A stretch of 42,404 nucleotides of DNA from an uncultured Haloferula sp. (lineage in GTDB: Bacteria > Verrucomicrobiota > Verrucomicrobiia > Verrucomicrobiales > Akkermansiaceae), in NCBI GenBank assembly GCA_965652295.1, contig CBFGTS010000024.1, positions 1 through 42,404 of the forward strand, in the 5' to 3' direction. Below are positions 2,500 through 20,143 of the stretch, piece by piece (positions within the stretch are counted from its first letter, which is position 1; every line of letters starts with the position of its first letter). The translations under genes were made by a program, and so were the position numbers. The notes beneath the pieces are model-generated. The model saw only the letters and a program-made list of their open reading frames with translations. It was not told the origin of the DNA and searched no databases.

Positions 2500-3294
2500 T
2501 CAGCGCGCTGCGGTCGCCGGAGCGGTGTTGTTGCGCTCGATCGCGGCGTCGGACTGGGCCTTGAACCACTCGTCGAAGGTGTCGCGGCTGATCACTTCCA
2601 TCTGCCCGGCCATGTTGGCGTGGCCTTCGCCGCAGAGCTGGCCGCAGACGACGGAAGTCTCGAGGTTCCGGGTGGGCGTGAACCACATCGGGATCTCGCG
2701 GCCAGGGATGGCGTCCTGCTGGATGCGCATCGGGACGATCGAGTAGTTGTGGATCACGTCATTGGACCCGATGTTGAGGATCGCGGGGCGGTCCTTCGGC
2801 AAACGCAGCACCGAGGTGGTGAAGTCGTCCTGGGCGTTCGGGTCGGCAAGGTCGATCCCCGGATCGCTCGAGCTGGTCTTGAGGCGGTGGTCGATGCGAC
2901 CGAAGCGGCCGTCGGCGCCGGCGTAGTGATAGGTCCAGCCGAACTGCCAGCCGATCACCCGCACGCGGATCGGGTCGCGCTTTTGCACCTGGGTCCAGGA
3001 ATCACTGCGGTCCTTCCACATCGGGAGCGCGAAGCCGAGGAGCAGCACGGCCTCGAGAATGATGATGCCGATCTCCAGGTGGGTGGAGAGATGGTTGCGG
3101 ACTCCGTGATAGGACGCCTTCGGCTGCACCCCGCGGCGGTAGCGCACGATCGTGAAGAGGAAGAACAGCGTCCAGCCGACGAAGAGGGCGATCATCAGCC
3201 AGTGCACCACATCGATGACGTGGTCCACGCGTCCGCCGTGGGCGGAGAAGCTATCGGGAATGCCGAGGAATTTGGAAGGACTCAGGGAGTTCAT
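2500..3294 (-). CDS. coxB: Cytochrome c oxidase subunit II (CuA), no fused cytochrome c
   Basis: Two TM helices, WQFGW motif, DVIH...CGQLCGEGHANM CuA ligand set. Confidence 0.93.
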   Translation of the reverse strand: MNSLSPSKFLGIPDSFSAHGGRVDHVIDVVHWLMIALFVGWTLFFLFTIVRYRRGVQPKASYHGVRNHLSTHLEIGIIILEAVLLLGFALPMWKDRSDSWTQVQKRDPIRVRVIGWQFGWTYHYAGADGRFGRIDHRLKTSSSDPGIDLADPNAQDDFTTSVLRLPKDRPAILNIGSNDVIHNYSIVPMRIQQDAIPGREIPMWFTPTRNLETSVVCGQLCGEGHANMAGQMEVISRDTFDEWFKAQSDAAIERNNTAPATAAR

Positions 3295-3307
3295 GGAGAA
3301 AAGGGAA

Positions 3308-3535
3308 TCAGTGGGAGCCGCTGGCCTGCGGTTCGCCGCGGGGATCGAAGTCGTCGCGAAGTTCGGGATCGAGGGTCTGTTCGCCGCGGCGGGCGATGCG
3401 GATCATGCACCACACCACGCCCCCGAGGACGGGCACGATCACGGCGAGGAGAAACAGGATGGACCAACTGGCGGCGTTGGCGCTGTCCTGGAAATTGGCG
3501 GAGCAGGTCGAGCAGGCGAGCAAGGAGTCGATCAT
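3308..3535 (-). CDS. Small single-TM protein with N-terminal CxxC (ACSTC)
   Basis: 75 aa; tight spacing between the 66-aa ORF and coxB; hydrophobic helix WSILFLLAVIVPVLGGVVW followed by RIARR. Confidence 0.7.
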   Translation of the reverse strand: MIDSLLACSTCSANFQDSANAASWSILFLLAVIVPVLGGVVWCMIRIARRGEQTLDPELRDDFDPRGEPQASGSH

Positions 3536-3541
3536 GGTCGG

Positions 3542-3742
3542 TCAGAGCAGGAGCTTGCGGGACTTGCGATAGAAATAGACGCCGTAAACCGGCATCCCCA
3601 CCCCACCGATGGCACCCAGGACGCCGAGACCGGTGACCATCACGGACTTCTCACCGGCAAAGCCGAAAGCCCACACGGCGAGGAACACGAAGAGCAGCGT
3701 GCTCAGCGTGACGAAAACGATGTGAAAGGCGCGAAGTGACAT
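3542..3742 (-). CDS. Small two-TM membrane protein
   Basis: 66 aa, two hydrophobic helices, basic C-terminus, co-oriented within the oxidase cluster. Confidence 0.7.
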   Translation of the reverse strand: MSLRAFHIVFVTLSTLLFVFLAVWAFGFAGEKSVMVTGLGVLGAIGGVGMPVYGVYFYRKSRKLLL

Positions 3743-3781
3743 GGCGGGAAGATCGCGGGGATCCGGCGGTTGGCAAATCGG

Positions 3782-4156
3782 TCAGGATTCCGGAGCCGGC
3801 AGCACGGCGGCCGCCTGTCCTCCGTCGGAGAAGCGGTCGTAGTGGATCGGGTCATCCTTGGCCCAGAAGATGAGGAAGACCATGAAGATGGCGAACACGA
3901 TGCCACTGGAGAACAGCCAGTAGACGGCCTTCTTCTCGTGGTTGAGGTGCATGAAAATCGCCGCCACCAGCGACGCCTTGGTCGTGGCGATGAGGAGGCC
4001 GAGGATCATGTCGGCCGAGTCGAAGCCGTGCCTGCCGAAATCGAGGGCGGGCACCGTGGCCACCAGCACCGTCACGATGGTGCCGACGAACAGCGCCGCG
4101 CCGATGATCAGGTAGAGGCGGATGGATTTCTTGATGTCTTCTGCGGTGTCAGCCAT
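3782..4156 (-). CDS. Cytochrome c oxidase subunit IV family protein
   Basis: Three TM helices and the KASLVAAIFMHL motif (CtaF/CyoD-like). Confidence 0.88.
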   Translation of the reverse strand: MADTAEDIKKSIRLYLIIGAALFVGTIVTVLVATVPALDFGRHGFDSADMILGLLIATTKASLVAAIFMHLNHEKKAVYWLFSSGIVFAIFMVFLIFWAKDDPIHYDRFSDGGQAAAVLPAPES

Positions 4157-4174
4157 GGGTGCGGAAGTTGGGGA

Positions 4175-5989
4175 TTACATGAGGTAGAAGATCGGGAACG
4201 CGAAGATCCAGACGAGGTCGACGAAGTGCCAGAACAGGCCGCCGACCTCCACCCGGTTGGCGAGCCACTCGGGATTGGAAAGATACATCTTGCGACCGAA
4301 GAACAGGTAGTAAGCCAGCACGATCGCCCCGCCCACCACGTGCAGACCATGGAGACCGGTGATGGTGAAATAGATGGCGTAGTAGGTGTTCCATTTCGGC
4401 GTGAACTTGGAGTCCATCGCCACTTCCGCCCGCGGGACGGAAATGTGCGGGAATTTGCGGTGGTCGTAATCCGGGCCCTTGAAGTGCTCCGTGAGGGTCA
4501 TCGTCACCCGCGGAGGCGTGAAGGCTCCTTCCTCGATCTGCACTTCCTCCAGCGGCGTGTCCATGTAGTAGGCGATCTCCTGCCAGCCCATCCGGTAGCG
4601 GTCCTTGTGGGTCGGCTCGCGGCCCTTCTCCGCCAGCGCTGCGGCGAGTTGCCCCACGGCCTTCTGATGTTTTTCCCAGAGGTCGGCGATCTCCGGGTTA
4701 TTCTTGATGATCCAGCTGTTCTCGATGGCGACCAACGGATCGATGCCTTTCTCCTCGGCCTTCATGACAAGGTGCTGGAAGTCGATGCCGTCCACGTAGT
4801 GGAAATCCAGCGCCGAATACCCCTGCTCGCCGGCGAGGGTGGTGCCATCCCGCAGGATGATGCTGGTGAGGCCCTCGCGGTAGTCGGTGATGACGTCGTG
4901 GCTTTTGAAGCGGAGCGTGAGCGGCTCGGCTCCGGCAGCGACGTTGAAGGTGGCGGCGGTGGTTTCGGGACGTTCGATCTGGGAGAACTTCTTGGTGTCG
5001 ATGAGCACCGGCACGGTCTCACCGCTGCCCAGCTTGACCGATTCGACGTTCACATCGGTGGCGAAGTTGGCACGCATGCCGGCCTTCCAGCGGACGTAGG
5101 CTTCCTCGCGCTCCTCCGGAGGGAGCTCGGAACCGGCGGGGAACGACGCCACGAACGCGGCCTCACCGAGCAGGTCGTTCTCTTCCACGTCGGCCCACTT
5201 GATTTCCCACGCCTTGCGCAGGTAGTCGGCGCGCATCGTCTGATTGAAGGCGCGGTTCTCGGTCTGGGCGGCGAAGAGCTTCTCCAACAGATCCACACTC
5301 AGCTTTTCTCCCGCGGCGAAAACCTTGGAGGCGTCGGGTGACTCGGCATCCGGCCGGTTGAAGTTCAGGTCATGGGCCAAGGCGATGGTGGCGCCGGCCT
5401 GATCGGCTTCCGCGACGAATGACTGCACCCACGGCTTGTAGGCGCGCAGCAGGTCGAAGGTCATCGTCTCCGGCTGGAAGCGCTGGACGTTCATCTCGAT
5501 TTCCTCGCCCATGGCGTCCACCGCATGCTCGGCGTGGCCGCCTTCTCCGGCATGGTCGTCGTGACCGGCACCGGCGGGCTTTTCGTAATCGATGTGGCCC
5601 TCGATCACCGAGTAGTCCGCCAGACGTGCGGCCTGGTGATGGAACTTCACGCTGTACTCGAGGCCCTTGAAGCCCATGAAGACCAGCGCGCAGAGCACCG
5701 TGATGGCCATGAAGATCTGGAACTGCACCCACTTCCTCATCTTCAGCGAGGCCCACGCGAATACCACCGTGACGGAGGACGCGATCAGGATGAAGGTGTT
5801 CAGCAGGCCCGGCAGCACCGGGAGCGTCCGCTCCGGCCACGGGTAGTCGGCCCCGAGGCGGAGGAAAACGTAGCCTGAGAACAGGCCGCCGAAGAGCATG
5901 ACTTCCGACGCGAGGAACAGCCAGATCGCGATCTTCGAGTTGAAGAGACCGGTGTCCTTGCGCGGGGTGACGACGTAGGGGATTTCCAT
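4175..5989 (-). CDS. coxC: Cytochrome c oxidase subunit III with large internal soluble insertion
   Basis: WLFLASEVMLFGGLF, NTFILIASS, EY in aa 1-112; YFTITGLHGLHV and FWHFVDLVW in aa 534-604; ~415 aa extra in between. Confidence 0.9.
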   Translation of the reverse strand: MEIPYVVTPRKDTGLFNSKIAIWLFLASEVMLFGGLFSGYVFLRLGADYPWPERTLPVLPGLLNTFILIASSVTVVFAWASLKMRKWVQFQIFMAITVLCALVFMGFKGLEYSVKFHHQAARLADYSVIEGHIDYEKPAGAGHDDHAGEGGHAEHAVDAMGEEIEMNVQRFQPETMTFDLLRAYKPWVQSFVAEADQAGATIALAHDLNFNRPDAESPDASKVFAAGEKLSVDLLEKLFAAQTENRAFNQTMRADYLRKAWEIKWADVEENDLLGEAAFVASFPAGSELPPEEREEAYVRWKAGMRANFATDVNVESVKLGSGETVPVLIDTKKFSQIERPETTAATFNVAAGAEPLTLRFKSHDVITDYREGLTSIILRDGTTLAGEQGYSALDFHYVDGIDFQHLVMKAEEKGIDPLVAIENSWIIKNNPEIADLWEKHQKAVGQLAAALAEKGREPTHKDRYRMGWQEIAYYMDTPLEEVQIEEGAFTPPRVTMTLTEHFKGPDYDHRKFPHISVPRAEVAMDSKFTPKWNTYYAIYFTITGLHGLHVVGGAIVLAYYLFFGRKMYLSNPEWLANRVEVGGLFWHFVDLVWIFAFPIFYLM

Positions 5990-6043
5990 GACAGAAGGTT
6001 CAAGATTTCGGTTTCAAGCTTTCAGACTTGGAACCGTGGAGAC

Positions 6044-7921
6044 TCAGTGGGCAGGCGACTCGGCGGGTTTTTCTTCCGGCTGCGGGCTGGTGCGCTTCGG
6101 CGCGATCCACTGTGGCAGGTAGTCCTCGTCGTGATCGGGACGGCTGTATTCGTAGGGCCCGCGGTAGACGACCGGCTCGGTCTCGAAATTCCCGTGGCCC
6201 GGAGGCGTCGGCGTGGCCCACTCGAGCGTGGTGGCATTCCACGGATTGTCGCTGGTGACCTTCTTGCCGAAGAACTTCGACCAAGCGAGGTTGATGAGGA
6301 ACGGAAGCTGGGCGAGCGCCATGGCCCACGCGGCGTAGGACATGAGGATGTTGAGGTCGATGTGCTGGGCAACGGTCGAGCCGAACACGTTCGGGCTGTC
6401 GGGCACCTTGGCCAGATAGGCATCGCCACCATTGTACCAGCGGCGGTGGAAACCGGACATGCCCTGGGTGAGCATCGGGAAGAAGATCAGGTTCATGCAC
6501 ACCAGGCTCGGCCAGAAGTGGAGGTGGCTGAGGAAGGTGCTCATGTGGCGTCCGGTGATTTTCGGATACCAGTGATACACCCCGGCGAAGAGACCGAAGA
6601 GGATCCCGGGAGCGACGACGTAGTGGAAGTGGCCGATGACGTAGTAGGTATCGTGCAGGTGAAGGCCGACGAGATTGAACGCGAGCGGCAAACCGGTCAG
6701 ACCGCCGATACCGAACATCGGCAGGAATGCGCAGGCCCAGATCATGGCCGGAGTGAACCGGATCGATCCCTGCCAGAGTGAAATGATCAGCGAGGTGAGC
6801 AGGATCACCGAGGGGATGGAAACCAGCACCGTGGTGGTCTGGAACCAGGTCGAAACGCCGGGGCCCATGCCGGTCATGTACATGTGGTGAGCCCACACGA
6901 GAAAGGAGAGGAAGCCGAGCACGAGCACGCCGTAGACCATGCCCTTGTAGCCCCACAGCGGCTTGCGGGTGTTGGCCGGAATGATTTCCGCCACGCAGGC
7001 GATGGCCGGAAGGAGAAGCACATACACCTCCGGGTGGCCGAGGAACCAGAACAAGTGCTGGAACAGCAGCGGCGAACCGCCACCGGAGATTTCAAGCAGG
7101 CCTTCCGCCTTGGTCACCAAGCCGGAGGGCATGAAGAAGGAGGAACCGGTCACCCGGTCCATCAACTGCATGATGCCGGCGGCTTCCAGCGGAGGAAAGG
7201 CGAGCAGGAGAAGGAAACCGGTGACCAGCATCGCCCATACGAAGAAGGGCATGCGCATCCAGGTCAGGCCGCGGGCGCGCAGGTTGATGATTGTGGTGAT
7301 GAAGTTGACCGAGCCCAGAAGCGAAGAGGTGATGAGAAGCACCAGGCCGATCAGCCATTGCGTCTGCCCTGCGAGCCATTGGTTGACGATCTGGGCGTCG
7401 GCAATGCCGGCGAGCGGCGAGTAGTTCGTCCAGCCGGACTTGGCGGCTCCGGACTCCATGAAAAACGAGGCGCACATCACCAGGCCACCTGCGAGGTAGA
7501 TCCAGTAGCTCATCATGTTGAGCTTCGGAAACGCCATGTCGGGGGCGCCGATCTGCAATGGGGTCACGTAGTTGCCGAAGGCCCCGAAGCCGAGCGGCAC
7601 GACACCGAGGAACACCATGATCGTGCCGTGCATGGCACCGAACATGTTGTAGGTCTCACCCGTCACCTTGCCATCCTGCAGCCAGCGGGATTTCCAGGTA
7701 TCGGAGAACATCCAGCTCATCCACTCCGGCAGCGGCTCGTGCGGGAAGGCGATGCTCCAGCGCATCACCATCATCAGGAAAAAGCCGAAGAGCAGGAAGA
7801 GCCCGGCGGTGATTCCATACTGGAGGCCGATCATCTTGTGATCGGTGGAAAAAAGGTATTTCCGGACGAAACCCGGGTCGTGGTGATCGTGATGATCGTG
7901 TGCGTCAGCGTGGGCGCTCAT
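6044..7921 (-). CDS. coxA: Cytochrome c oxidase subunit I, A1 type
   Basis: STDHK, HGTIMVF, PDMAFP, FWFLGHPEVY, WAHHM, HDTYYVIGHFHY, RR pair; all six His ligands present. Confidence 0.97.
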   Translation of the reverse strand: MSAHADAHDHHDHHDPGFVRKYLFSTDHKMIGLQYGITAGLFLLFGFFLMMVMRWSIAFPHEPLPEWMSWMFSDTWKSRWLQDGKVTGETYNMFGAMHGTIMVFLGVVPLGFGAFGNYVTPLQIGAPDMAFPKLNMMSYWIYLAGGLVMCASFFMESGAAKSGWTNYSPLAGIADAQIVNQWLAGQTQWLIGLVLLITSSLLGSVNFITTIINLRARGLTWMRMPFFVWAMLVTGFLLLLAFPPLEAAGIMQLMDRVTGSSFFMPSGLVTKAEGLLEISGGGSPLLFQHLFWFLGHPEVYVLLLPAIACVAEIIPANTRKPLWGYKGMVYGVLVLGFLSFLVWAHHMYMTGMGPGVSTWFQTTTVLVSIPSVILLTSLIISLWQGSIRFTPAMIWACAFLPMFGIGGLTGLPLAFNLVGLHLHDTYYVIGHFHYVVAPGILFGLFAGVYHWYPKITGRHMSTFLSHLHFWPSLVCMNLIFFPMLTQGMSGFHRRWYNGGDAYLAKVPDSPNVFGSTVAQHIDLNILMSYAAWAMALAQLPFLINLAWSKFFGKKVTSDNPWNATTLEWATPTPPGHGNFETEPVVYRGPYEYSRPDHDEDYLPQWIAPKRTSPQPEEKPAESPAH

Positions 7922-8017
7922 GGCAGGTCAGAAATTGGAGTGAACGCAAAAGGCGGTCAATGAACAGCAGAAAATGCGGAGTTGAAGAGACGAATAGGGC
8001 TCAGAGCGATAGGAGGG

Positions 8018-8046: not shown

Positions 8047-8049
8047 GGC

Positions 8050-8802
8050 TTATTCTTCCACGGGTGAGAGGGATACGGGATCGACCTTGGTGGTGGGGTC
8101 GAGGGGCTCGCCGGGCAGTTCCTCCATGTGGTCGGCCTGCAATTCCTGCTGGTCGAGTGGAGTACCCGGAGCCGACCGGGCTTCGGAGATTTCAAGCGCC
8201 TTGGCGGCCATTTCCGTCGTGACGATCCCGCCGGCATCATTACCGAACGAGTTGCGGACGTAGGTCATCACCGAAGCGAGATCGGTCGCGCTCATGCCGA
8301 CCCCTTGGGCGGGCATCACACCGAAGGTCTTGCCGGTGCTGGTCGGACCGGTGAGGCCATTGAGAACGATCATCGCGAAGCGTTCGGTCGGGCCCATCAC
8401 CCATTCCGAACCCGCGAGCGAGGGGTAGGCTCCCCCACCCTTGCCGTCGGGAGCGTGACAGCCGACGCACTTCGAGTAAACCTTCTCTCCCTTCGCCATG
8501 TAGGCCTTGAGGGCATCGACGGGCGGCGGACCGGAATCCTCGCCGCTGTCGAGAGCTTTGCGGGTGTAGTCGGGTGCGACGATCTGGTTGTAGTCGAACA
8601 TCCCGCCGGCCTGGCCGAGGACGAGGCCCGCCGCGATGGCGACCACCCCGCCGGTGGCGAAAATCCAGTTGGAAACCGGTTCGCGTCCACCATCGTCCAC
8701 GCGCTTTTCGCGGGCCACGGCAGCGGCATCGCGCAGGAGGCGGTCGTGGGACTCGGTGACGTTCAGCGAATCGTCGAGATCGGGCTTGTGAGGATCTTGC
8801 AT
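8050..8802 (-). CDS. Membrane-anchored monoheme cytochrome c
   Basis: One TM, CVGCH, PSLAGSEWV, VMPAQG (Met ligand), VMTYVRNSFGN. Confidence 0.9.
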   Translation of the reverse strand: MQDPHKPDLDDSLNVTESHDRLLRDAAAVAREKRVDDGGREPVSNWIFATGGVVAIAAGLVLGQAGGMFDYNQIVAPDYTRKALDSGEDSGPPPVDALKAYMAKGEKVYSKCVGCHAPDGKGGGAYPSLAGSEWVMGPTERFAMIVLNGLTGPTSTGKTFGVMPAQGVGMSATDLASVMTYVRNSFGNDAGGIVTTEMAAKALEISEARSAPGTPLDQQELQADHMEELPGEPLDPTTKVDPVSLSPVEE

Positions 8803-8821
8803 CGGATGCGGGAAACCGGGT

Positions 8822-9526
8822 TCAGCCTTCGGGGTTGGTGGGCGCCGGAGCGTAGTTCATCGAGGCCGGCACGGTGTCGTCGTGCTGGAGGGAAAGGAGA
8901 TAACTGGCAAGCGCGCGGGCTTGCTGGCCGGGCACGATTTCGATGCCCTCTTCGGTTGCCACGTCGATAGCGGCATCAGAAGGCGGACCGTGGCGCTCGC
9001 GCTTCTCGAAGAGGAACGGCAGCGACGGGCAGTTGGTCCAGGCGGCGACCTCGGGGTCGAGCCGTGGATTGTAGAGGCGGAGGTAAAGGTAGTCTTCCGC
9101 ATCCGCACCGTGGTCACGCAGCAGCCGGCGACCGTAGTTCATCAGGTCCGGGCCGGTCCTCGTCACGCCGATCGGGGCGAAGTCGAGGCCGACGTAGTCG
9201 AAGGGGTTCGACTCGCGGCGGGTGTCGCCCCGCTCCGGGTCGTCACTGAGACCGGCGAAGTCCGGGCGACCGAGGTCGTTGCCGGCGGTGGTCGGGCGGA
9301 TGACCTGGGTGTGGCAGAGGTAGCAGCCGTTCTCGGCGTAGACTTCGTAGCCGTTGACCACGCGGCCGGCGGTCTTCGGGTGATAGATCCCGGTCTGGGT
9401 GTCGATGCCCTCCTGGAATGCGACCGGGGAAAGGGCGCGCATTTTGAAGAAGGGGACGACCACCACGGCAAGCCAGGCGAGGCCGAAGCTGGCGGTGAGT
9501 CCGATGGCGAAAGTGCGGAAGTTCAT
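8822..9526 (-). CDS. CcoO/FixO-like monoheme cytochrome (cbb3 subunit II homologue), atypical
   Basis: N-terminal TM, GYEVYAENGCYLCHTQVIRP, RTGPDL, LYNPR; the SxMP motif reads TNCP. Confidence 0.85.
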   Translation of the reverse strand: MNFRTFAIGLTASFGLAWLAVVVVPFFKMRALSPVAFQEGIDTQTGIYHPKTAGRVVNGYEVYAENGCYLCHTQVIRPTTAGNDLGRPDFAGLSDDPERGDTRRESNPFDYVGLDFAPIGVTRTGPDLMNYGRRLLRDHGADAEDYLYLRLYNPRLDPEVAAWTNCPSLPFLFEKRERHGPPSDAAIDVATEEGIEIVPGQQARALASYLLSLQHDDTVPASMNYAPAPTNPEG

Positions 9527-9548: not shown

Positions 9549-11027
9549 TCAGTGGACGATGGGACCGGTGTTGTCGATGTCGCCTTCCGGCCCGTGCGGG
9601 CTCTCGGCGTGGCCGTGGACCAGCAGGGTCGGATGCGAGCTGCGGCGGCCGAGGCGCAGCCACATCAGCGTGAGGTGCATGAAGAAGAAGAAGTTCGAGA
9701 CCAGCAGGAAGCACCAGGCGATCGTGTTGAACACGGCGTAGTTCTGGCTGCGGTCGGCCGCGTCCTCCCAGCCGGTCAACATCGCCTCCTGGCCGACTCC
9801 CTGCATCAGGCCGCCGAACAGCGTGATCACCGCGATGCCGCCCGCTCCGTAGATCGAGAGGAAGAAGTGCGAGGTGATGAGGCGGCGGGAAAGCCACTCG
9901 CGGCGGGTGATGCGCGGGACGATGAAGTAGATCGCACCGAAGGCGATGAAGCTGAAGAAGCCGTAAACGCCGAGGACCTCGTATCCGTATCCGGAAATGG
10001 TGAATTGCGTGAGTTTCAGCACCCCGGGGAGATTGAGGAAGACGCTGGCGAGGGCGAAAACGAGCAGGAAGATCAAGCCCCAGACGGTGAAACGCAGGGT
10101 CGGGCTGGTGTTGACCGTTTCCAGATCGGTGGCGGCCGTCTTGAGCAAGTTGATGCCGGCGACGGCGGCGGGGATGGCGAAGAGAACCGTCGCGAAGGCC
10201 CCGAGGTAGGGCAGGAAGTTCGGCAGCGGCACCCCGGCAAGGGTTTGCAGGCCGGCCCACGGAGCGATGATCGCCAGCGACCAGAAGCCAATCATCGAAA
10301 GCGAGTAGTTGTAGACCGGACGACCAAGCACCTTGGGCACCAGGTAGTAGGCCATGCCGATGCCGATCGGGGCGAAGAGCATCAGCAGCATGGCGGAGCG
10401 GAACCAGGCGTTCACGCCGGTGGCTCCGAGCGGGCTGCCATCGAAGCCGTGGATCAGCAGGTTCGACGAGGCGAAGAACCACGGGAACCAGATCAGCGCG
10501 GCCATCAGGTACCACTGGGAAACATAGGTGTGACCCTCCGGGCGGACTTTGAACTGGACCATCGAACCGATGACGATCGCGATGTAGGCGAGGAGCATCG
10601 GGAACCAGGCGAACGAAGGCATTTCCATCCATGGCATCCCGGTGCCGCCACCGGCGAGGATGGCGATGACGCCGAGCGAAAGTGCGAAGTTCCAGACGTG
10701 GCCGGCGGTGAGGATCGTTCCGGGGTTGCGGCAGGTCTGGCGGGAAAGCCGGGCCATCAGCCAGATCACCATCCCGAAGGCCGCCTGGCAGCCCCAGCCG
10801 TAGATGAAGGCGGTCTGGTGAGCGGCGAACACGCGGCCGTAGGTCAGCCAGGCACATTGGTCGAGGAAGCCGGGGCTGTGGACCTTGGCGGAGGAGACGA
10901 TGCCGAGCAGGATCGCCACCGCCAGCCAGGCCGCGCCGCTGGTGAAGAAGAACATCACCGGATGGCGGAGCGATCGGTCGATCGACGCGCGCAGGATCGT
11001 GTCTTGGTCGTTTTCGAGGGAGGCCAT
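9549..11027 (-). CDS. CcoN/FixN-like polytopic membrane protein lacking active-site ligands (pseudo-oxidase)
   Basis: CcoN framework motifs LTYGR..H, YVSQWY, YYLVPK...PVYNY, WAG, P.LRF, YFIVPR, HF are present; CuB and heme b3 histidines are absent. Confidence 0.85.
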   Translation of the reverse strand: MASLENDQDTILRASIDRSLRHPVMFFFTSGAAWLAVAILLGIVSSAKVHSPGFLDQCAWLTYGRVFAAHQTAFIYGWGCQAAFGMVIWLMARLSRQTCRNPGTILTAGHVWNFALSLGVIAILAGGGTGMPWMEMPSFAWFPMLLAYIAIVIGSMVQFKVRPEGHTYVSQWYLMAALIWFPWFFASSNLLIHGFDGSPLGATGVNAWFRSAMLLMLFAPIGIGMAYYLVPKVLGRPVYNYSLSMIGFWSLAIIAPWAGLQTLAGVPLPNFLPYLGAFATVLFAIPAAVAGINLLKTAATDLETVNTSPTLRFTVWGLIFLLVFALASVFLNLPGVLKLTQFTISGYGYEVLGVYGFFSFIAFGAIYFIVPRITRREWLSRRLITSHFFLSIYGAGGIAVITLFGGLMQGVGQEAMLTGWEDAADRSQNYAVFNTIAWCFLLVSNFFFFMHLTLMWLRLGRRSSHPTLLVHGHAESPHGPEGDIDNTGPIVH

Positions 11028-11037
11028 GGCAGGAAAA

Positions 11038-11895: not shown

Positions 11896-13233
11896 TCAAT
11901 TCGAGACGTTCGCGGACTCGAGGATGCGGGGATCCTGGTTGGGGTAGAGGTTGTTCTGGCCGAGGGCGCGCAAGTAGAAGAAGACGAAGCCGGAGCCAAC
12001 CGTGATGAAGGCGAGGATGTCGCCCCAGAACGCACCGGGGACGGTGGTCGTCACGTGGCCGAACTGCTCCGGAAGGAGATTCATCAGCGAGACCGAGCGC
12101 TCGGGAATGGCGATCAGGTAATGATCGAGGAAGTGCATCGCCAGCGTGTAGACGGCCATGGCGGCGAGAGCCATCGGCTTCTTTTTCAGCCAGGCTTGCA
12201 GCAGGATCACGAAGGGGACGACGAAGTGGAGGAAGACCAGAGCGATCATGCCGGTGTTCCAGCCGCCGGTGTTGCGGATCAGGAAATAGCGGGTCTCCTC
12301 GGTGATGTTCGCATACCAGATGAGGAAATACTGGGAGAACGCGATGTAGGCCCAGAAGATGGTGAAAGCGAGGAGCAGCTTGCCCTTGATGTGGTAGTGC
12401 TCCGGCGTGACGACCTTCTTCATGTAGCCCGCCCGCTGGAGCAGCGCACAGGTGATGATGATCACGGCCATCGAGTTCAGCGCGGAACCGGCGAAGAGAT
12501 ACACCCCCCACATGGTCGAGAACCAGGTGTAGTCGAGGCCCATCAACCAGTCGAAGCCGGCGAAGGTGATGGTGATCGCGAAAATGATCAACGTGTAGGT
12601 CGAGTGGAAGCGGGCGCGGAACAGGCGGCTGGTGCCGGGGTTCGGATCGCTGTCCTGCTCGACGGAGAGCTTCCGCAGACCGCGGATGACGAGGCTGAGA
12701 CCGACGAAGTAGAAGACGAAGCGGACGTACCAGAACGGGATGCTCATGTACCAGTACTTGAGATACATGAGGTGGTGGTGCGGATCGTGGCTGTGGTGGA
12801 GCGCATCCTTCGCGCCCACGCCGAAGGTGGAACCGGAAAGCTCGCGGTGGGTGTTCATCCACTCGTAGAGCCATTTTTGCACCGCCGGGCAGGCCAGCGG
12901 CGCGGCGAAAATAAACATCCAGGGATACACCGAACCGAGGTTCTCCATGACGCGGCGGACCGAGGTCCCCCACCCCGAGTTGGAGACGTTGTGAAGCAGG
13001 GTCCAGAAGCAGCCACCGACGGCCAGGGTGAAGAAGAAGAACACCGCGAACAGCCAGGAATAGGAGTAGGTGGCGGCCCAGCCTTCATTCGGGCCGAAGA
13101 GCAGGAAGAAGCTGACCAGCGTGAGCACCGCCGAGGTGCCACCGGCGATCAGCTTGATCTTCGGAATGATCGGGCTGCTGAGTCGCTCGCCTTGGGCGGG
13201 GACGTCCGCGGAAGTGACGTAGTGGGAAGCCAT
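11896..13233 (-). CDS. actF: Alternative complex III subunit ActF
   Basis: Polytopic NrfD-like protein: FDWLMGLDYTWFSTMWG, FWAYIAFSQYFLIWYANITEET; position in the act operon. Confidence 0.9.
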   Translation of the reverse strand: MASHYVTSADVPAQGERLSSPIIPKIKLIAGGTSAVLTLVSFFLLFGPNEGWAATYSYSWLFAVFFFFTLAVGGCFWTLLHNVSNSGWGTSVRRVMENLGSVYPWMFIFAAPLACPAVQKWLYEWMNTHRELSGSTFGVGAKDALHHSHDPHHHLMYLKYWYMSIPFWYVRFVFYFVGLSLVIRGLRKLSVEQDSDPNPGTSRLFRARFHSTYTLIIFAITITFAGFDWLMGLDYTWFSTMWGVYLFAGSALNSMAVIIITCALLQRAGYMKKVVTPEHYHIKGKLLLAFTIFWAYIAFSQYFLIWYANITEETRYFLIRNTGGWNTGMIALVFLHFVVPFVILLQAWLKKKPMALAAMAVYTLAMHFLDHYLIAIPERSVSLMNLLPEQFGHVTTTVPGAFWGDILAFITVGSGFVFFYLRALGQNNLYPNQDPRILESANVSN

Positions 13234-13252
13234 GGTCGGAGAGGAAAAGAGC

Positions 13253-13954
13253 TTACTGGGCCGGGTTGGCTGAGGCTTGAGCCGCGTCGTAGGCGGCCTT
13301 GACGGCAGGATCGGACAGCGGCGCCTTCTGGGCGGCCTGGAGGGCGCGGACGTAGGCGATCACCGCCCAGCGGTCGCGCAGCGAAAGGTTGTGCTTGTAG
13401 GAACCCATGTTGCCTTTGCCGTGGGTGATCACGTCGAACATCCGTCCGTCCGGATACGCGGCGGGGCCGAAATTCTCGAGCGTCAGGTTGGCGACACCGG
13501 GGACACCGTATTGCGCGGCCATGCCTTGGCCGTCGCCGGAAGCGCCGTGGCATGGCATGCAGTTGACGAGATACATCTCGTGGCCGCGGCGGAGGAAGGC
13601 ATCGACGTTCTCCTCGGTGAGCTCCAGTTCCTCCGGCATGCCGCTGGAGTAGTGGTCGTTGATGACACCGGTGGCGTAGTAGCCGGTGCCTCCGCCGAAC
13701 TGATACTCGGGGATGCCGCCGAGTTCCGTCTGGCCGCTTTCGAGGAAGCCCCGGGGATGGGTGCCATCGACCGGCTGACGGGCACCGACGCCATCGGCGA
13801 AGAAAGCGTCCGGCTTCTGGGCCTTGAGCTTGTCCTGGTTGTCCATGTCCGGGAGCAGCCAGATCGGTGTGTCGGCGCGCTTTTCACCCCGCATCGGCAT
13901 GAGACCGATGAAGAGCGCGGCGATGATCGCGTAAGCGAGGAAGAAGTATTTCAC
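13253..13954 (-). CDS. actE: Alternative complex III monoheme subunit ActE
   Basis: PDMDNQ.K.K.Q, RG.EMY.VNCMPCHG..GDGQG, ITHGKGNM, DRWAVIAYVRALQ; GTG start. Confidence 0.9.
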   Translation of the reverse strand: MKYFFLAYAIIAALFIGLMPMRGEKRADTPIWLLPDMDNQDKLKAQKPDAFFADGVGARQPVDGTHPRGFLESGQTELGGIPEYQFGGGTGYYATGVINDHYSSGMPEELELTEENVDAFLRRGHEMYLVNCMPCHGASGDGQGMAAQYGVPGVANLTLENFGPAAYPDGRMFDVITHGKGNMGSYKHNLSLRDRWAVIAYVRALQAAQKAPLSDPAVKAAYDAAQASANPAQ

Positions 13955-13976
13955 GGTGGGAGCGGAGAGCTGGGAG

Positions 13977-14531
13977 TTAGTCCTCTTCTTCGACGAGTTC
14001 GATGTTGGTGCCGCCGATGTCCTGGAGGAGGTTCCGGGTGCCTTCGGGGCTGAACTTCGGATCGCGGGCTTCGATGGCGATGAAGAAGGCGTCGTCGGTG
14101 GCGCGGTGGAACTGCTTGCTGGCGAACAGCGGGTGGTTCAGGCGTGGCAGCTTCATCAGCGCAAGCAGGCCGAAGAGCACGGTGAAACCGGAGAACAGGA
14201 TGGTCAGCTCGAACATCACCGGGAAGAAGGCCGGCACGGTGAAGATGTTGGTCGGCTTGGCCTGGACGACGGTCGGGTAGATCAGGACCTGGGTGCCGTA
14301 GGCGAGGCAGAAAGCGGTGAGGGTGCCGGTTGCGCCACCGAAGAACACCAGCCAGGGCAGGACGGAGCGCTTGAGGCCCATCGCGCCATCGAGGCCGTGG
14401 ATCGGATAGGGCGAGTGGCAGTCCCACTTGCGGAAACCGGCATCGCGCACCTTTTCCGCGGCCTTGTAGAGGGCGGAGGCGCTTTTGAATTCGGCCAGGT
14501 AGCCGTAAACGCGTTTACGAGTCGTGCTCAC
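13977..14531 (-). CDS. actD: Alternative complex III subunit ActD (DUF3341)
   Basis: LAEF, HSPYPIHGLD.AMG, FFPVMFELTILF, DDAFFIAIEA.DP. Confidence 0.92.
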   Translation of the reverse strand: MSTTRKRVYGYLAEFKSASALYKAAEKVRDAGFRKWDCHSPYPIHGLDGAMGLKRSVLPWLVFFGGATGTLTAFCLAYGTQVLIYPTVVQAKPTNIFTVPAFFPVMFELTILFSGFTVLFGLLALMKLPRLNHPLFASKQFHRATDDAFFIAIEARDPKFSPEGTRNLLQDIGGTNIELVEEED

Positions 14532-14568
14532 AGGTAATGAAAGGCGTGGGTGATTCCGGCGGGAGGTT

Positions 14569-16047
14569 TCAGATCGACGGCGACTTGTCGCGCAGTTCGT
14601 ATTGATAGGCGGCCTGATCCGTGACGCCCTCGTCGGGATGATCCTTGAGGTCGTCGAAGTGCGGATCGGACTCCGGCAGCGTCCACTTCACTTCCGCAAT
14701 GTTGATGCAGGGCAGGAAACGGAGGAACAGCAGGAACAAGGTGAGGAACATCCCGATGGTGCCGACGAACAGGAGCTGGTCCTGGCCGCTCGGGGAGAAG
14801 TATTTCCAATCGCCCGGCAGCCACATGCGAGAGAGCGTGGTGACGATGATGACGAAGCGTTCGAACCACATGCCGCAGTTCACGCACATCGCCACGGCCA
14901 TCACGACCCAGAGGTTCTCCCGGCATTTCTTGAACCAGAAGATCTGCGGCGAGAGGACGTTGAGGCCCATCATCCAGAAGTAGGCCCAGTTGAAGGGACC
15001 GGCGATCCGGTATTTGAAGGCTTCCATCTCGAACTTCGCGCCGGAGTAGAAGGCGACGAAGAGCTCCATCAGGTAGGCGTAGCCGACGATGGTGCCGGTC
15101 AGCAGGATGATCTTCGCCATGTTGTCGATGTGCTTCATCGTGATCAGATCCTGCAGGCCGTAGATGAAACGGGCGGGAACCATGATGGTGAGCACCATCG
15201 CAAAGCCACCGAAGATGGCGCCGGCGACGAAGTAGGGCGGGAAAATCGTGGTGTGCCAGCCGGGGACGACCGAGGTGGCGAAGTCGAAGGAAACGACCGA
15301 GTGCACCGAGAGCACCAGCGGGGTCGAAAGCGCGGCCAGAAGGAGGTAGGCCATTTCATAGTGGCTCCACTGGCGGTTGCCGCCGCGCCAGCCGAGCGAG
15401 AACAGGCCGTAGAGGAACTTGCGCAGGCCGGGCTTGCAGCGATCGCGGATGGTCGCGAGGTCCGGAACCATGCCGAGATACCAGAAAATCAGCGAGACGG
15501 TGAAATAGGTCGAGACCGCGAACACGTCCCACAGCAACGGCGATTTGAAGTTTTGCCAGATGCCGTTGGCATTGGGAACCGGGGCAAGGAACCAGACCAT
15601 CCAGACGCGGCCAACGTGGAAGGCGGGGAAGATCCCCGCGCACATCACGGCGAAGATCGTCATGGCCTCCGCGGCACGGTTGATCGAGGTCCGCCAGTTC
15701 TGACGGGTCAGGAAAAGGATGGCCGAAATCAGCGTTCCGGCGTGGCCGATGCCGATCCAGAACACGAAGTTCACGATCGGCCAGCCCCACATCACGCGGT
15801 TGGTGTTTCCCCAGACCCCGACACCGGTCGAAACCAGGTGGAAGAGGCCGAAGCCGACGCCGATGGCGGCGATGAGGGCGCTCGGAATGAAGAGCAGCCA
15901 CCACAAGCCGGGCTGGCGGTTTTCGAGGACGCCGCAGATCCGCTCGGTGATCCAGTGATAGGAGCGGTCGTTGAGGATCAGCTTCTCGCGCTTGAGCACG
16001 GGAAGCTTCGGACCTTGGCGTTGGGAGGTTTCAGTGGCGGTGGCCAT
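14569..16047 (-). CDS. actC: Alternative complex III subunit ActC (NrfD family, quinol-oxidising)
   Basis: [64 protein letters not shown]. Confidence 0.96.
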
Positions 16048-16086
16048 GTTTCTCGCAGGTGACTGGGATCGGATCGCGGGCAGCGA

Positions 16087-19000
16087 TCAGTGCATGTGAA
16101 TGGTCGCTTTCCCGATGAACCGGGCACCGGGCATCGAGGGATTCGGATTCTTGACGCGGGCCAGATAGCTGGTGCGCGGGCGGGTTCCGATGTATTGGAG
16201 CAGATCGTAGTTCCGGGCGACGTCCTTGGCGCGCATCACGGTGGCCTTCTGCTCGTCGAGCTTGTTGCCGAAGGTGATGGCACCGGCCGAGCAGGCGTCC
16301 TGGCAGGCGACCTTGACGGAATCGACCGGGATGCGGAGTTCCGCGGTGCCGACGCTGACGGCCAGCGAGTTGCCGGTGGCGAGCGTTTCCTGCTTCTGGC
16401 GGCGCTTCTGACGGATCTTGGCGTCCTTGAGGCGCTGCACGCAGTAGGTGCACTTTTCCATCACGCCGCGCATGCGGACGGTGACGTTCGGATTGCGCTG
16501 GAGGTGGGCGGCGGTGCCGACCTGCTTTTCACCCAACGGACCGCGGTAGAGGTTGTGGGCGATGAGCGGGTTGCGCTTGTTGTAGTCGAAGAAGTTGAAA
16601 CGACGGGCCTTGTAGGGGCAGTTGTTCGCGCAATAGCGGGTGCCGATGCAGCGGTTGTAGGCCATCGCGTTGAGGCCGTCCTCAGTGTGAACGGTGGCAT
16701 TCACCGGGCAGACGGTTTCGCACGGCGCGGACTCGCACTGCACGCAGGCAACCGGCTGCGGGATCATCTCCAGGTTGTCGCCGGATTCGTCGCCGTCCTG
16801 GGAGGCGAAATACCGGTCCATCCGGATCCAGTGCATCTCGCGGCCCTTGGCGAGCTGCTCCTTGCCGACGATCGGGATGTTGTTCTCCGCCTGGCAGGCG
16901 ATGAGGCAGGCGTTGCACCCGGTGCAGCTGCTGAGATCGATCGCCATCGCCCACTGGTGAAGCGGGTCGTTGATGAGCGGCTGGCCCTGACGGTCCTCCT
17001 GCTTGTAGAGCGAGATGTTCGGCGGAGCGTGGGAGTCCATGCCCTGCTTCTTCACACCGGCGAGCTGGTGGGCGAAGTCGCCCTTCACGTCATCGGCCGC
17101 CGTGGAAACCTCCCGGGCAATCGCGCGGCCATACATGGAGTGATGCTCCTGGGTGGCGGCGAGGCTGTATTTCCGGCCGGTCTTGGTCGGAGTTCCTTCG
17201 AGAACCGCGAAGTAGGGAGTCGCGCTGGTGCGGGCGGGATAGACGTTGAAACCGGTATTCACACCGACGAGGCCGACGTGGGCTTCGTTGCCGGTGTCGC
17301 GGCCGAGTTCGTCGTCGGCATTGCAGCCCTGGCCGTAGCCGAGAGGAACGTAGACCACGCCATCGGCGAGCCCGAAGGCGATCTGCACCGGCAGCTCAAG
17401 TTCGACGCCGTTGACCTTGATGGAAATCATCTTGGCCTTGAGGTTCTCCCCTTCCCCATCCGGCGGCACCGCGGCGGTCGGGGTCTGGATCTTCACCAGC
17501 TCGTCGTAGAGATCGTATTGCTTGGCCGTCGCGGGCGAAACGAAGGCGGCGTTGTCCCACGACAGCTTCGAGAGGGGGTCCGGGGCTTCCTGGAGCCAGC
17601 CGTTGTCGATCCAGCGACCATCGTAAACCGAATAGTCGGTGGCGAAGATGATCTCAAGGTCGCCGCCGGCGGGCGCGGCATCGATCGCGGCGGTCAGCGC
17701 GGCGGCATCGGAGGAAACGGTCGCGGTGGGATAGCTCGATCCGGCGAGGAAACCCTCACGCAGCAGGGTTTTCCAAGCCTCTTCGGTTTCGCCTGCCAGG
17801 GCGGAGAAGGTCTTGCGGACCGCGGCCATCGCCGGGCTGGCTCCGCCTTCCTCGCCTTCTCCGGTGAGAAGACGGCCTTCGCCATCGAGCAGCGCGGAGA
17901 GCACCTCGAGCTCGCTCGCGCAGTCGGGGTAGAGCGGCAGGATCATCGGCTGGACGATCGTGTAGACGCCGGTGGCGCTGCGGGCATCGCTCCAGCTTTC
18001 GAGGTAGTGGCTGGCCGGCACGTGCCAGGTGGTGGCGTGCGCGGTGGCGTCGGTGCGGAGACCGAAATGGATGCTGGTCTCGGCATTCGCCAGCGCCTCG
18101 TTGAACCCGAGGTCGGCCGGGGCGTCGTAAGCAGGATTCGAGGGCGTGAAGAACAGGACGTGCTCGACGGCGCCGGAGTTGAGGTCGGCGACGAGCTCGG
18201 CCAGACCGCCGAGGCCGGTGTTGCCAGTCACCACGGCGCGCAGCGGGGCGTCCTCACCGATCGCCCCGATACGGAGATTGATCGCGGCGGCGATGCGATG
18301 GACGGCTTCCGGCGCGCGGCTGCCGACGACCACCATCGAACGTCCGCGGTTCGCCTGCAGGTCCTTGGCCAGTTCCGCGACCCAATCGGAAATGCGGGCA
18401 TCGGCGGCAGGTGCGTTTCCAACGGAGCCACTATCGCCGAGGGCGCGGAGGATTTCCGCGGCCGCCGTGACGAGCTGGCTCGGCTTCACGCGCAAGCGGT
18501 GATCCGCCATGCCGCCGGTGAGCGAGAAAGCGCTTTCGACGGCGTAGAGCCGGTTCATGCGCGAGGAATCCGGAGCCTGATCGTAGCCTCCACCCTCGGG
18601 CTTGCGGCGGTCGTAGAACGCGCGGACCGGACCGACGGAGTCGAGTTCGGTGAAATCGCAGTCGAGCGAAACGATGCGGTCGGCCTTGGTAAAATCGGCC
18701 ACGAAACGCACACCGTCGCCGAACAGGCCGTCGGCTTCGCCTTCAAGCGCCTCGTAGGCGTAGGCCCTGAGGCCGGAGAACTTCGCCTGCAAGTCCTTCA
18801 GGAGACGGCTGCGGGTGGGCGAGTCATCGCGACCGAAAACCACGCCGACTTTCGCCGCGGGATCGTTGGCGATTCCGGCGAGCACGCCCTCGAACTCACC
18901 GCGGGTGGCGGGCTTTCCGTGGTGCAGCACCTGGCGCGAGCGGCTGGGAGAATACAGATCGAGCACCGAGGCCTGGGCGAAGGCGTCGGTGCCGGCACCC

Positions 19001-19407
19001 TCGGGGTGCAGCTCGTTCGGGCCGACCCGGGTCGGGCGGCCTTCGTAGGTGGTCACCACCAGCGGGGTGGCACCGCCGGAGCGGGGAAAACTGGAAGCGT
19101 AGTAGGTCGCCTTGCCCGGAATGACCCACTCGGGCGCGTTGGCGTAGGGCAGGATGTAGCTTTCCGGGCGGCGGCAGGCGGCCATGCCGAAACCGGCGAG
19201 GGCGGTCGAGGCGCCCATGAGTTTGAGGAACGACCGGCGGGATGTCTCCATCTCCTCCTGGTTCTCCATCTCCGCGGCGCCGCGGGGAAACTCGCGCTCG
19301 AGCCACTCGCGGAACTCGGCCGTGTTCTCAAGCTGCCCGACACCGCGCCAGGAGACGGTGGTTTCGTCCGCGGGAACGTCGGGGTGTTGCCAGATGCGTT
19401 TGCTCAT
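16087..19407 (-). CDS. actB: Alternative complex III subunit ActB (molybdopterin-oxidoreductase-like plus Fe-S domain)
   Basis: Tat motif SRRSFLK followed by AAC; C-terminal [42 protein letters not shown]. Confidence 0.96.
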
Positions 19408-19441
19408 GGGTCGACGGAAAGATTTTCGAAACGGAAAGGAA

Positions 19442-20143
19442 TCAGTGGTGGCAGGTGGCGCAGGAGGTCGGCGCGTGGATCTGCCACTGCTCTACGAGCT
19501 TTTTGCCGAGATCCTCGGTGGTCGTGATGCCGAGTTCGGGGTGGGCGGCGAGGTATTCCTCGGCGTCATAGGAAAGGTTGTAGACCTCCTCGAGCGGACG
19601 GAGGTTCTTCTCCGGCTGACGGTGGCAATCGAGGCACCAGCCCATCGAGAGGCTCTGGTCCTGATAGACGACCTCCATCTGGTCCACCCGGCCGTGGCAG
19701 CTCTGGCAGGAAATGCCGCGGTTCACGTGGGCGGAGTGGTTGAAGTAGACGTAGTCCGGCGTCTTGTGGATGCGCACCCACTCGACCGGCTTGCCGAAGT
19801 CCGGGTGCTTCAGCAACGGATCCATCCGGTTGCGCAGCGGCTGGAGCTTCGGGCTCTCCTTCTGCACGTGCTGGTGGCAGTTCCAGCAGGTGTTCGAGGT
19901 CGGGACGTTCGAGTGATGCGAGACGTCGACGAACGAGTGGCAGTAGCGGCAGTCCAGACCGACCTGTTCGACGTGGATGCGGTGGGAAAACGGGATCGGT
20001 TGCGAGGGCTGATAGCCGACGACGAGCGTTTTCGGCGTGGCGTAGTAAGTGAAAGCCGCCACGACACCGGCTCCGAGCGCCAGCACGCAGATCGCGATCT
20101 TGAACGGGAGAACGTTGGTCCAGCGCGGGAAGAAGTTGGCCAT
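19442..20143 (-). CDS. actA: Alternative complex III pentaheme cytochrome ActA
   Basis: Start reassigned to ATG 20143 (MANFFPRW); one TM, QPIPFSH, five CxxCH motifs (CRYCH, CWNCH, CQSCH, CLDCH, CATCH). Confidence 0.94.
   Translation of the reverse strand: MANFFPRWTNVLPFKIAICVLALGAGVVAAFTYYATPKTLVVGYQPSQPIPFSHRIHVEQVGLDCRYCHSFVDVSHHSNVPTSNTCWNCHQHVQKESPKLQPLRNRMDPLLKHPDFGKPVEWVRIHKTPDYVYFNHSAHVNRGISCQSCHGRVDQMEVVYQDQSLSMGWCLDCHRQPEKNLRPLEEVYNLSYDAEEYLAAHPELGITTTEDLGKKLVEQWQIHAPTSCATCHH

Follow-up and report, generated by a model that had tools for sequence, protein, structure and literature searches.

In Flavobacterium johnsoniae, alternative complex III (ACIII) and a co-encoded aa3-type oxidase form a supercomplex, according to the title of Protein Data Bank (PDB) entry 6BTM (Sun et al. 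2018), and actABCDEF is followed there by the genes of an A-family oxidase in one operon. For Verrucomicrobia, the adjacency of ACIII genes to a "cbb3-type oxidase" is already in print, in verrucomicrobial methanotrophs and Opitutaceae (PMC8498564, PMC6688271, and preprint 10.1101/2024.01.15.574570); the passages of these papers that concern the module regard it as a high-affinity oxidase, and the preprint reports its transcripts. Here, we describe a cluster of 16 genes at positions 2500 to 20143 of a 42,404-nucleotide stretch of DNA from an uncultured Haloferula sp. (contig CBFGTS010000024.1; the whole stretch is referred to below as the window), in which the protein encoded next to ACIII is a homologue of the cbb3 catalytic subunit CcoN that has lost nearly all of its cofactor ligands and is conserved under purifying selection. 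We call this protein CcoN* and the altered CcoO homologue that follows it CcoO*.

Like the F. johnsoniae operon, the cluster sets actABCDEF ahead of an A-family oxidase, and its expected function, judged from the genes, would likewise be to pass electrons from quinol to O2 without a soluble carrier. Unlike that operon, it has four extra genes between the two complexes (an ActG-cytochrome c fusion, CcoN*, CcoO*, and a cytochrome c), its oxidase has no K-channel Lys, and a putative periplasmic domain of ~435 residues is built into subunit III. With the cbb3 oxidase of Pseudomonas stutzeri (CcoNOP; PDB 3MK7 and 5DJQ), the middle of the cluster shares the gene order N-O-cytochrome c, the CcoN fold, and the transmembrane (TM) anchor and CxxCH motif of CcoO. 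It differs from CcoNOP in that the third subunit has one heme rather than two, ccoQ and ccoS are missing, CcoN* retains a single one of the six ligand His and lacks the cross-link Tyr, CcoO* carries Cys in place of Met, and both proteins score far under the NCBIfam cut-offs.

Results

CcoN* is a folded, selected protein that lacks the ligands of an oxidase

In alignments with P. stutzeri CcoN and with the genome's own true CcoN, the ligand His that CcoN* keeps is His70 in helix 2. At the remaining five ligand columns stand Ser or Ala (the choice varies with the alignment), Gln, Thr, Tyr, and Val, and Ala takes the place of the cross-link Tyr; it is in this sense that the description of CcoN as ligand-less, given in an earlier note made from the sequence of this DNA, is correct. 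CcoN* departs from the C family in these residues and in its TIGR00780 score of 109.9 bits against a cut-off of 583.15; its predicted model has the 12-helix subunit I fold of that family. The model (pLDDT 87, pTM 0.89) superposes on 3mk7_A with TM-scores of 0.86/0.90 and an rmsd of 2.2 Å over 456 columns, at 21% sequence identity. Comparison with three relatives gave dN/dS values of 0.134, 0.095, and 0.141 for CcoN*, beside 0.149 to 0.155 for ActF, 0.136 to 0.225 for ActB, and 0.039 to 0.063 for CoxA; CcoN* is under purifying selection. Its identity across Haloferula, Luteolibacter, and metagenome-assembled genomes (MAGs) is 63 to 89%, the nearest related locus being that of Haloferula sargassicola (89%), and all 30 loci examined have uninterrupted reading frames. 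Selection with dN/dS near 0.1, the confident fold, and this conservation together argue that CcoN* folds, is kept by selection, and is not the product of gene decay. The part of a superfamily survey that treats the active-site His (PMC11214002) describes them as completely conserved except in one family and lists no ligand-less family.

The constant partner of the module is ACIII

The order of all 15 genes queried is identical in each of the 10 full-length related loci (Haloferula, Luteolibacter, and MAGs), so the arrangement is not due to chance; three short related contigs agree as far as they extend. Of 401 genomes of the phylum that were searched, 120 had matches at E <= 1e-20. The strong matches listed (at least ~130 bits) sit in families of the same class or nearer, where they are near-universal in many families (e.g., 26/26 and 34/35 genomes), and one 28-genome genus of the window's own family had no match in this search. 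Matches in other classes were weak (22 to 27% identity), and many were frames the size of a fused CcoNO. At the level of the class, we compared 20-kb stretches surrounding the match, taken from 20 genomes of 19 families. ActA-F lie directly upstream in 18 of the 20 loci, the exceptions being L054, with only ActE-ActF, and L071, which stops at a contig end; CcoO and a cytochrome c follow CcoN in all 20. An A-family oxidase lies downstream in seven loci, five of them K-less, and 12 have no A-type oxidase within the 7 to 9 kb fetched downstream. It is thus ACIII, and not the aa3 oxidase, that constantly accompanies the module, and the ACIII-ccoN adjacency is tight across the class, with gaps of 10 to 48 nt in the window. 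At L054, the 6.7 kb farther upstream (13293-20000) gave no ActA-D match, and its ACIII operon seems to be split or interrupted; for one methanotroph, an insertion of a nos cluster among the ACIII genes has been reported. At L065, a CoxB-like gene follows the module (7154-7987), with no CoxA match in the next 7 kb.

The state of CcoN divides these loci into two types. Of the 31 sequences compared (the window and 30 loci), 10 are ligand-complete, with six His and the Tyr, and 21 lack the Tyr and keep no more than three His; 29 further short loci, some from the same genomes, comprise 20 ligand-complete and nine ligand-poor forms. A library-wide HMMER search returned 1621 matches, 281 of them at E <= 1e-30. 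In a tree set of 169 sequences, which is biased toward the query's own kind, the six ligand columns hold no His in 69 sequences, one in 59, two in 18, three in 5, four in 1, and six in 17. The FastTree tree of this set, rooted on the genome's NOR-like protein, places a ligand-complete clade of 15 (support 0.988), which takes in stand-alone ccoNOP operons of Granulosicoccus and a Pseudobdellovibrionaceae MAG, as sister to a ligand-poor clade of 149 (support 0.832), with two ligand-poor representatives outside the latter. The topology points to essentially one old loss of the ligands, with long-branch attraction possible. Many independent losses were also considered and mostly rejected, since the 149 ligand-poor sequences form one clade.

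Other features vary with the CcoN state. An open reading frame (ORF) of ~70 residues resembling FixS/CcoS precedes ccoN in ligand-complete loci, above the Pfam cut-off in three of nine and below it in two more; no FixS/CcoS-like match was found among six gap ORFs from ligand-poor loci or among the window's own genes, the ActG-like one included. Mean identity across families is 35% for ligand-poor CcoN (65% for ActC of the same loci) versus 59% for the complete form (ActC, 73%), over 36 pairs each, with L054 omitted (it has no ActC) and the window's family represented by L053 alone. The ligand-poor form thus evolves faster than the complete form, which fits a structural rather than a catalytic constraint. 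Among the best 120 matches to a profile of ligand-poor sequences, all named organisms but one "Limnocylindria" MAG are verrucomicrobial, and those proteins that bear a functional name are labeled cbb3 subunit I, with one entered as a hypothetical protein; NCBI and JGI likewise label such proteins "cbb3-type cytochrome c oxidase subunit I." We also noted that the ligand-complete, ACIII-linked CcoN (L057-L064, L066, and L071) have Gln, Leu, Ile, or Phe at the Glu of T-F-E-G-P. One paper deems this Glu mandatory in "authentic" cbb3 oxidases and names an "unknown group," which these loci may represent.

The ligand-poor form extends to probable methanotrophs. A locus of methanotroph type (L072) matches the window in having ActA-F, CcoN*, CcoO, a cytochrome c, and a K-less CoxA. 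In four genomes of one genus (G279, G132, G093, and G111), each with three or four pmoA genes, the sole CcoN-like gene next to ACIII encodes a protein with six His in all and no HH or HxH; no true CcoN was found in these four genomes, the best TIGR00780 score being 28.5 bits. We infer that these are the organisms of the methanotroph papers cited above.

CcoO* and an extra cytochrome set the window's family apart

CcoO* retains the TM anchor and the heme motif, CYLCH, and, as the earlier note had claimed, the axial Met of N-M-P-x-Y-P-W-L is replaced by Cys, in N-C-P-S-L-P-F-L. Its NCBIfam score is 35.6 bits against a cut-off of 200.65. The Cys and the CxxCH are present in all of the best 120 CcoO* homologues from a large protein collection. 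All 31 CcoO sequences compared retain the CxxCH, whichever the CcoN state, and the Cys is confined to the window's family (the window, L001-L010, and L053), the remaining 19 loci having Met. The same family has the ActG-cytochrome fusion in all 11 related loci, and the anchor stands by itself in other lineages: over its N-terminal part, the fusion aligns weakly with an unfused small ORF at the equivalent place in other families, and its cytochrome c domain resembles Thermus thermophilus c552 and the cytochrome c domain of NirK. At L068, a cytochrome c match was also seen in the gap before CcoN. The third-subunit cytochrome (8050-8802), which scores 32.6 bits with the NCBIfam ccoP model, under the cut-off, is c552-like as well, and c552-type cytochromes are a known kind of donor to CuA.

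Cytochromes c with His/Cys-ligated heme are known, among them SoxAX, TsdA, and DsrJ; they share with CcoO* a CxxCH heme and a conserved Cys at the place of the distal ligand, by which a like ligation may be supposed in CcoO*. None of them is known to be a CcoO homologue or part of an oxidase-type complex. Such ligation would set the heme potential far below what a relay from ACIII to an oxidase requires. The CcoO* heme in the window's family would be either His/Cys- or five-coordinate and, if so, CcoO* is probably no longer a plain relay. The strictness of the Cys and the simultaneous gain of an extra cytochrome suggest that the job of CcoO* has changed in this family.

The oxidase lacks the K-channel Lys and has an enlarged subunit III

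The column of the K-channel Lys, K362 in Rhodobacter sphaeroides numbering, holds Leu in CoxA, and a loop of 13 residues is inserted before GGGSP. CoxA shares with the R. sphaeroides subunit (1m56_A) all six His, the D-channel Asp, and both the Glu and the Tyr of GHPEVY. CoxA therefore has the metal ligands, cross-link Tyr, D-channel Asp, and Glu of the A family without its K-channel Lys, as the earlier note had it, and the genome supplies the CuA site in subunit II and heme A synthesis (two CtaA genes). The translation of CoxB shows H...CxxxCxxxH..M, the CuA motif, and, having no CxxCH, no cytochrome c domain. The K-less CoxA with the loop insert is found in 16 of the 18 CoxA compared, from four families, including L058, whose CcoN is ligand-complete; two loci with the order coxB-coxA keep the normal Lys. 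In archaea, K-channel variants of A-family oxidases are discussed in the relevant passages of Degli Esposti et al. (2021; PMC8239418), and these share an A-family subunit I without the canonical Lys. Unlike them, the clade of the window is bacterial, is tied to an ACIII-ccoN operon, and has the 13-residue loop and the enlarged subunit III.

In CoxC, helices are predicted at residues 20-38, 58-76, 92-110, 546-564, and 582-600, and between TM3 and TM4 lies an acidic, Cys-free insert of ~435 residues, confirming the giant insertion noticed earlier. The positive-inside pattern and the known topology of five-helix subunits III would place this insert in the periplasm. The AlphaFold model of CoxC has a pLDDT of 81.5, with block means of 85 to 95 across most of the insert. 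A Foldseek search with the whole CoxC model gave no PDB match at E <= 0.001, the best hits being subunit III helices; in a wide VIA-align comparison, matches were helical bundles restricted to the membrane part, and residues 120-525 gave no usable match in the ESM Atlas. CoxC lengths form a series of 202 to 207 residues (Lys-bearing type), 263, 312, 466 to 482, and, in the window's family, 527 to 634.

The deviations are nested and separable

The ligand-poor CcoN, the Cys of CcoO, the K-less CoxA, and the enlarged CoxC are fixed together in every one of the 11 related loci that cover the cluster from end to end (L001-L010 and L053), so their co-occurrence, on which the earlier note had laid weight, holds in the window's family. 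It does not hold across the class, where L058 pairs a cofactor-complete CcoN with a K-less CoxA and nine ligand-poor loci (L054-L056, L065, L067-L070, and L072) adjoin a CcoO with the normal Met. By the distribution of these sequences, the deviations are nested and separable, not one coordinated package.

The cluster encodes core respiration

The first six genes have the make-up of an ACIII: ActA and ActE contribute five and one CxxCH motifs, ActB combines a TAT signal with molybdopterin-like and Fe-S regions, ActC and ActF are of NrfD type, and ActD is present. The genome has four genes of the COX1 family, namely CoxA, CcoN*, a genuine fused CcoNO, and a NOR-like enzyme, together with one cytochrome bd, the two CtaA (heme A synthase) genes, and a single ActD. 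The genuine cbb3 oxidase (contig C6:196729-200113; L022:6730-10114) consists of a fused CcoNO of 843 residues, whose TIGR00780 score of 614 bits lies above the cut-off, followed by CcoP. No cytochrome b was detected in the genome, the assembly of which is 98% complete. Given this and the single ActD, the ACIII of the cluster is the only quinol:cytochrome c oxidoreductase found and, as judged from gene content, the genome's only candidate for that activity. The K-less CoxA enzyme is its only A-family oxidase. With both, the cluster belongs to core respiration and is not an accessory island. The NOR-like cluster (contig C3:149974-155302; L021:3975-9303) encodes a diheme-type cytochrome c, a COX1-family protein of 452 residues, and a MoxR/NorQ-like AAA protein, along with a 566-residue protein and a subunit-III-like protein, and has NorQ/NorD-like neighbors.

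Gene order and RNA matches

The 16 genes (Table 1) lie on the minus strand in the order actABCDEF, ActG-like plus cytochrome c, ccoN*-ccoO*-cytochrome c, coxA-coxC-coxIV-orf66-orf75-coxB, which agrees with the earlier reading in orientation, order, and close spacing: intergenic gaps are 6 to 54 nt, except for one of 128 nt between the cytochrome c and CoxA. Pfam and NCBIfam assign all of the genes but ActF, orf66, and orf75. An in-frame GTG at 20284 makes a longer form of ActA possible. The small protein orf75 is conserved within its family of loci, at 50 to 73% identity in L001-L010 and L053; a C-S-T-C motif lies N-terminal to its TM helix, and it may act in copper handling or assembly.

Table 1. 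Genes of the cluster and the adjoining regulatory pair, with positions in the window
Feature	Position	Strand	Basis
ActA, pentaheme cytochrome c of ACIII	19442-20143	-	five CxxCH; Pfam Cytochrome_C7 and c3 families, NCBIfam QrcA-like
ActB, fused molybdopterin-like and 4Fe-4S subunit, TAT signal	16087-19407	-	Pfam Fer4_7, TAT_signal; NCBIfam TIGR04519, QrcB/QrcC-like
ActC, NrfD-type quinol-binding membrane subunit	14569-16047	-	Pfam NrfD, 92.4 bits
ActD	13977-14531	-	Pfam PF11821 ActD, 202 bits; no second ActD found in genome
ActE, monoheme cytochrome c	13253-13954	-	one CxxCH; Pfam Cytochrome_CBB3 and Cytochrom_C
ActF, second NrfD-like membrane subunit	11896-13233	-	PDB 6f0k_F, E 1.7e-49; also 6lod_F, 6btm_F
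ActG-like single-TM protein fused to c552-like monoheme cytochrome c, 269 residues	11038-11847	-	TM 18-36; CAACH
CcoN*, cofactor-ligand-poor homologue of cbb3 catalytic subunit	9549-11027	-	Pfam COX1, 133.8 bits; TIGR00780, 109.9 bits
CcoO*, TM-anchored monoheme cytochrome c, Cys for axial Met	8822-9526	-	Pfam FixO, 31.4 bits (cut-off 29.6); TM 6-24; CYLCH
TM-anchored monoheme cytochrome c, CcoP-like/c552-like	8050-8802	-	Pfam Cytochrom_C, Cytochrome_CBB3; TM 47-65; CVGCH
CoxA, A-family oxidase subunit I without K-channel Lys	6044-7921	-	Pfam COX1, 419.8 bits; alignment to 1m56_A and 1ar1_A
CoxC, five-helix subunit III, ~435-residue insert between TM3 and TM4	4175-5989	-	Pfam COX3 in two stretches; TM map
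CoxIV, prokaryotic subunit IV	3782-4156	-	Pfam COX4_pro, 40.1 bits
orf66, small (66 residues), two predicted TM helices, no family match	3542-3742	-	TM prediction; Pfam/NCBIfam
orf75, small (75 residues), single TM, N-terminal CxxC, no family match	3308-3535	-	translation; Pfam/NCBIfam
CoxB, subunit II, CuA motif, no fused cytochrome c	2500-3294	-	Pfam COX2; NCBIfam CoxB, 117 bits (under cut-off)
OmpR-type response regulator and PAS histidine kinase	110-2058	+	convergent to cluster end

Contigs from two RNA runs contain pieces identical to the window, at 10764-10914 and 10934-11223 in run X1 (soil metatranscriptome contigs) and at 8176-8415 in run X2. The piece at 10934-11223 spans the junction of the ActG-cytochrome fusion and CcoN*, but a contig over two genes does not prove a single transcript. 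The two runs cover only 0.10 and 0.06 of the stretch, and DNA can occur in such libraries; these matches are a weak hint of expression at most, and the parts without matches carry no information. No promoter-like sites were found in the stretch, against 2.5 expected, and 19 terminator-like sites, against 13.1 expected; both counts are uninformative at this G+C content.

Discussion

The cbb3-derived proteins of the cluster are conserved, selected, and non-catalytic, and the most economical reading is that they serve as a scaffold or electron wire. More specifically, we give about even weight to the proposal that a dead oxidase core is kept as a membrane scaffold that holds anchored cytochromes c at the exit of ACIII. 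The ancestor of the class would have encoded ACIII together with a working CcoN-CcoO-cytochrome c oxidase, and in one large sub-lineage CcoN would have lost its two hemes, CuB, and the cross-link Tyr, yet have been retained. As a 12-helix scaffold, CcoN* would hold the helix anchors of CcoO* and of the CcoP-like cytochrome c, as CcoN does in cbb3, and the scaffold and the ActG-cytochrome fusion would place membrane-tethered c-type hemes at the electron exit of ACIII (ActA/ActE). Electrons could then pass to CuA in the neighboring aa3-type oxidase, where subunit II lacks a fused cytochrome c, and probably to the genuine cbb3 enzyme, encoded at another locus, as well. The c552-like domain on the ActG-like anchor may, in the window's family, have taken over the relay step of CcoO*. 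We favor a role in electron relay because the heme c motifs survive everywhere, CoxB lacks a cytochrome c domain, and the two c552-like domains resemble CuA donors. The physical association with ACIII and aa3, the path of the electrons, and the role of the Cys are proposed here from sequence, and an ACIII-oxidase supercomplex in the window is a hypothesis. The earlier note had suggested that the cbb3-derived proteins were repurposed as a scaffold, electron wire, or sensor linking ACIII to the aa3 enzyme. The repurposing is supported by their conservation, selection, and non-catalytic make-up; the link to aa3 is not, as the conserved partner is ACIII (18/20 loci) and not aa3 (7/20).

Several observations weigh against the scaffold proposal. 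The evidence for contact among CcoN*, ACIII, and aa3 is the order of the genes, and with 12 of 20 loci having no downstream A-type oxidase, bridging to aa3 cannot be the conserved role. The Cys that is invariant in the best 120 CcoO* homologues is a misfit in a plain relay, given the low potential that is known of His/Cys hemes. A mere scaffold might also be lost or replaced, and a dN/dS near 0.1 could mean a function that we have not thought of. Finally, the monophyly of the ligand-poor forms may have been aided by long-branch attraction, and two ligand-poor representatives lie outside the clade. A bolder form of the scaffold proposal, restricted to Verrucomicrobiales, would make the dead CcoN the load-bearing bridge of an obligate ACIII-relic-aa3 megacomplex, in which CcoN*, the ActG-cytochrome fusion, the CcoP-like cytochrome, and the CoxC domain form a closed periplasmic conduit and the His/Cys heme of CcoO* acts as a low-potential gate or sensor switching electrons between the K-less aa3 and the true cbb3 oxidase; we think this unlikely.

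The gene order could also reflect co-regulation only, with CcoN*, CcoO*, and the cytochrome c forming a small membrane complex of their own that takes electrons from ACIII by collision and binds stably to neither ACIII nor aa3. Gene order being the evidence for association, this reading gains from the downstream oxidase, which is variable or missing in 13 of 20 loci, and from the 128-nt gap before coxA. It is nevertheless doubtful, since the ACIII-ccoN adjacency is very tight over the whole class and since a co-encoded ACIII and oxidase do form a supercomplex in F. johnsoniae, as the title of 6btm states (Sun et al. 2018). Alternatively, the His/Cys or open heme of CcoO* in the window's family might sense a small molecule (O2, NO, or sulfide) or redox state, with CcoN* passing the signal to ACIII or the oxidase. 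That the Cys occurs in all of the best 120 homologues and is absent from the 19 loci outside the family would suit such a sensor or gate, as would the gain, coinciding with the Cys, of the His/Met-type ActG-linked cytochrome, which could free CcoO* from the relay, and the PAS histidine kinase and response regulator that adjoin the cluster. We regard a sensor as quite improbable, because Pfam and NCBIfam found no signaling domain in CcoN*, CcoO*, or the neighboring small ORFs, and ligation of the heme iron by Cys is read from the sequence.

Residual activity of CcoN* is very improbable. In this reading, His70, together with Tyr/Phe or Lys at columns that once held ligands, would still bind a cofactor in a non-standard way, and the protein would have some redox or catalytic activity, and His70 is indeed kept in the window's family and two others (pattern H....., L001-L010 and L053-L056); in other oxidase families, low-spin hemes with His/Lys or His/Met ligands appear in the pertinent section of PMC11214002. 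However, the partner of His70 is Val, Ile, or Leu; the three CuB His, the heme b3 His, and the Tyr are all gone; 69 of the 169 sequences of the tree set have none of the six His; the methanotroph form has six His in the whole protein and neither HH nor HxH; and no CcoS-like gene is present. That the genes are decaying pseudogenes without function, as the loss of all catalytic residues might suggest, is barely conceivable, being already contradicted by the conserved gene order and dN/dS of 0.10 to 0.14, and further by intact frames in all 30 loci, 63 to 89% identity across genera, a pTM of 0.89, and, weakly, the RNA-library contigs.

The cluster is a good example of an under-described and widely mis-annotated feature of Verrucomicrobiia. 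Layers specific to the family are added in the window: a CcoO* with a Cys-heme, the fusion of the ActG-like anchor to a cytochrome, a K-less aa3, and a giant domain in subunit III. In the full-text literature searched, to which Refojo 2010, Muntyan 2015, and Sun 2018 did not belong, we found no description of a ligand-less CcoN clade, a Cys-bearing CcoO, or the K-less clade. A metal-less catalytic subunit maintained by selection would be a clear pseudoenzyme among the heme-copper oxidases, whose active-site His are called essentially invariant in the survey's treatment of them (PMC11214002). If the finding that the methanotroph genomes contain no true CcoN holds, statements about the low-oxygen respiration of these organisms would need revision. 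The loci also form a natural series, from a working ACIII-linked oxidase, through a ligand-less core, to a state in which a Cys-heme CcoO is joined by one more cytochrome, a K-less aa3, and a larger subunit III, and they offer a tractable system for asking how respiratory supercomplexes are built and rewired.

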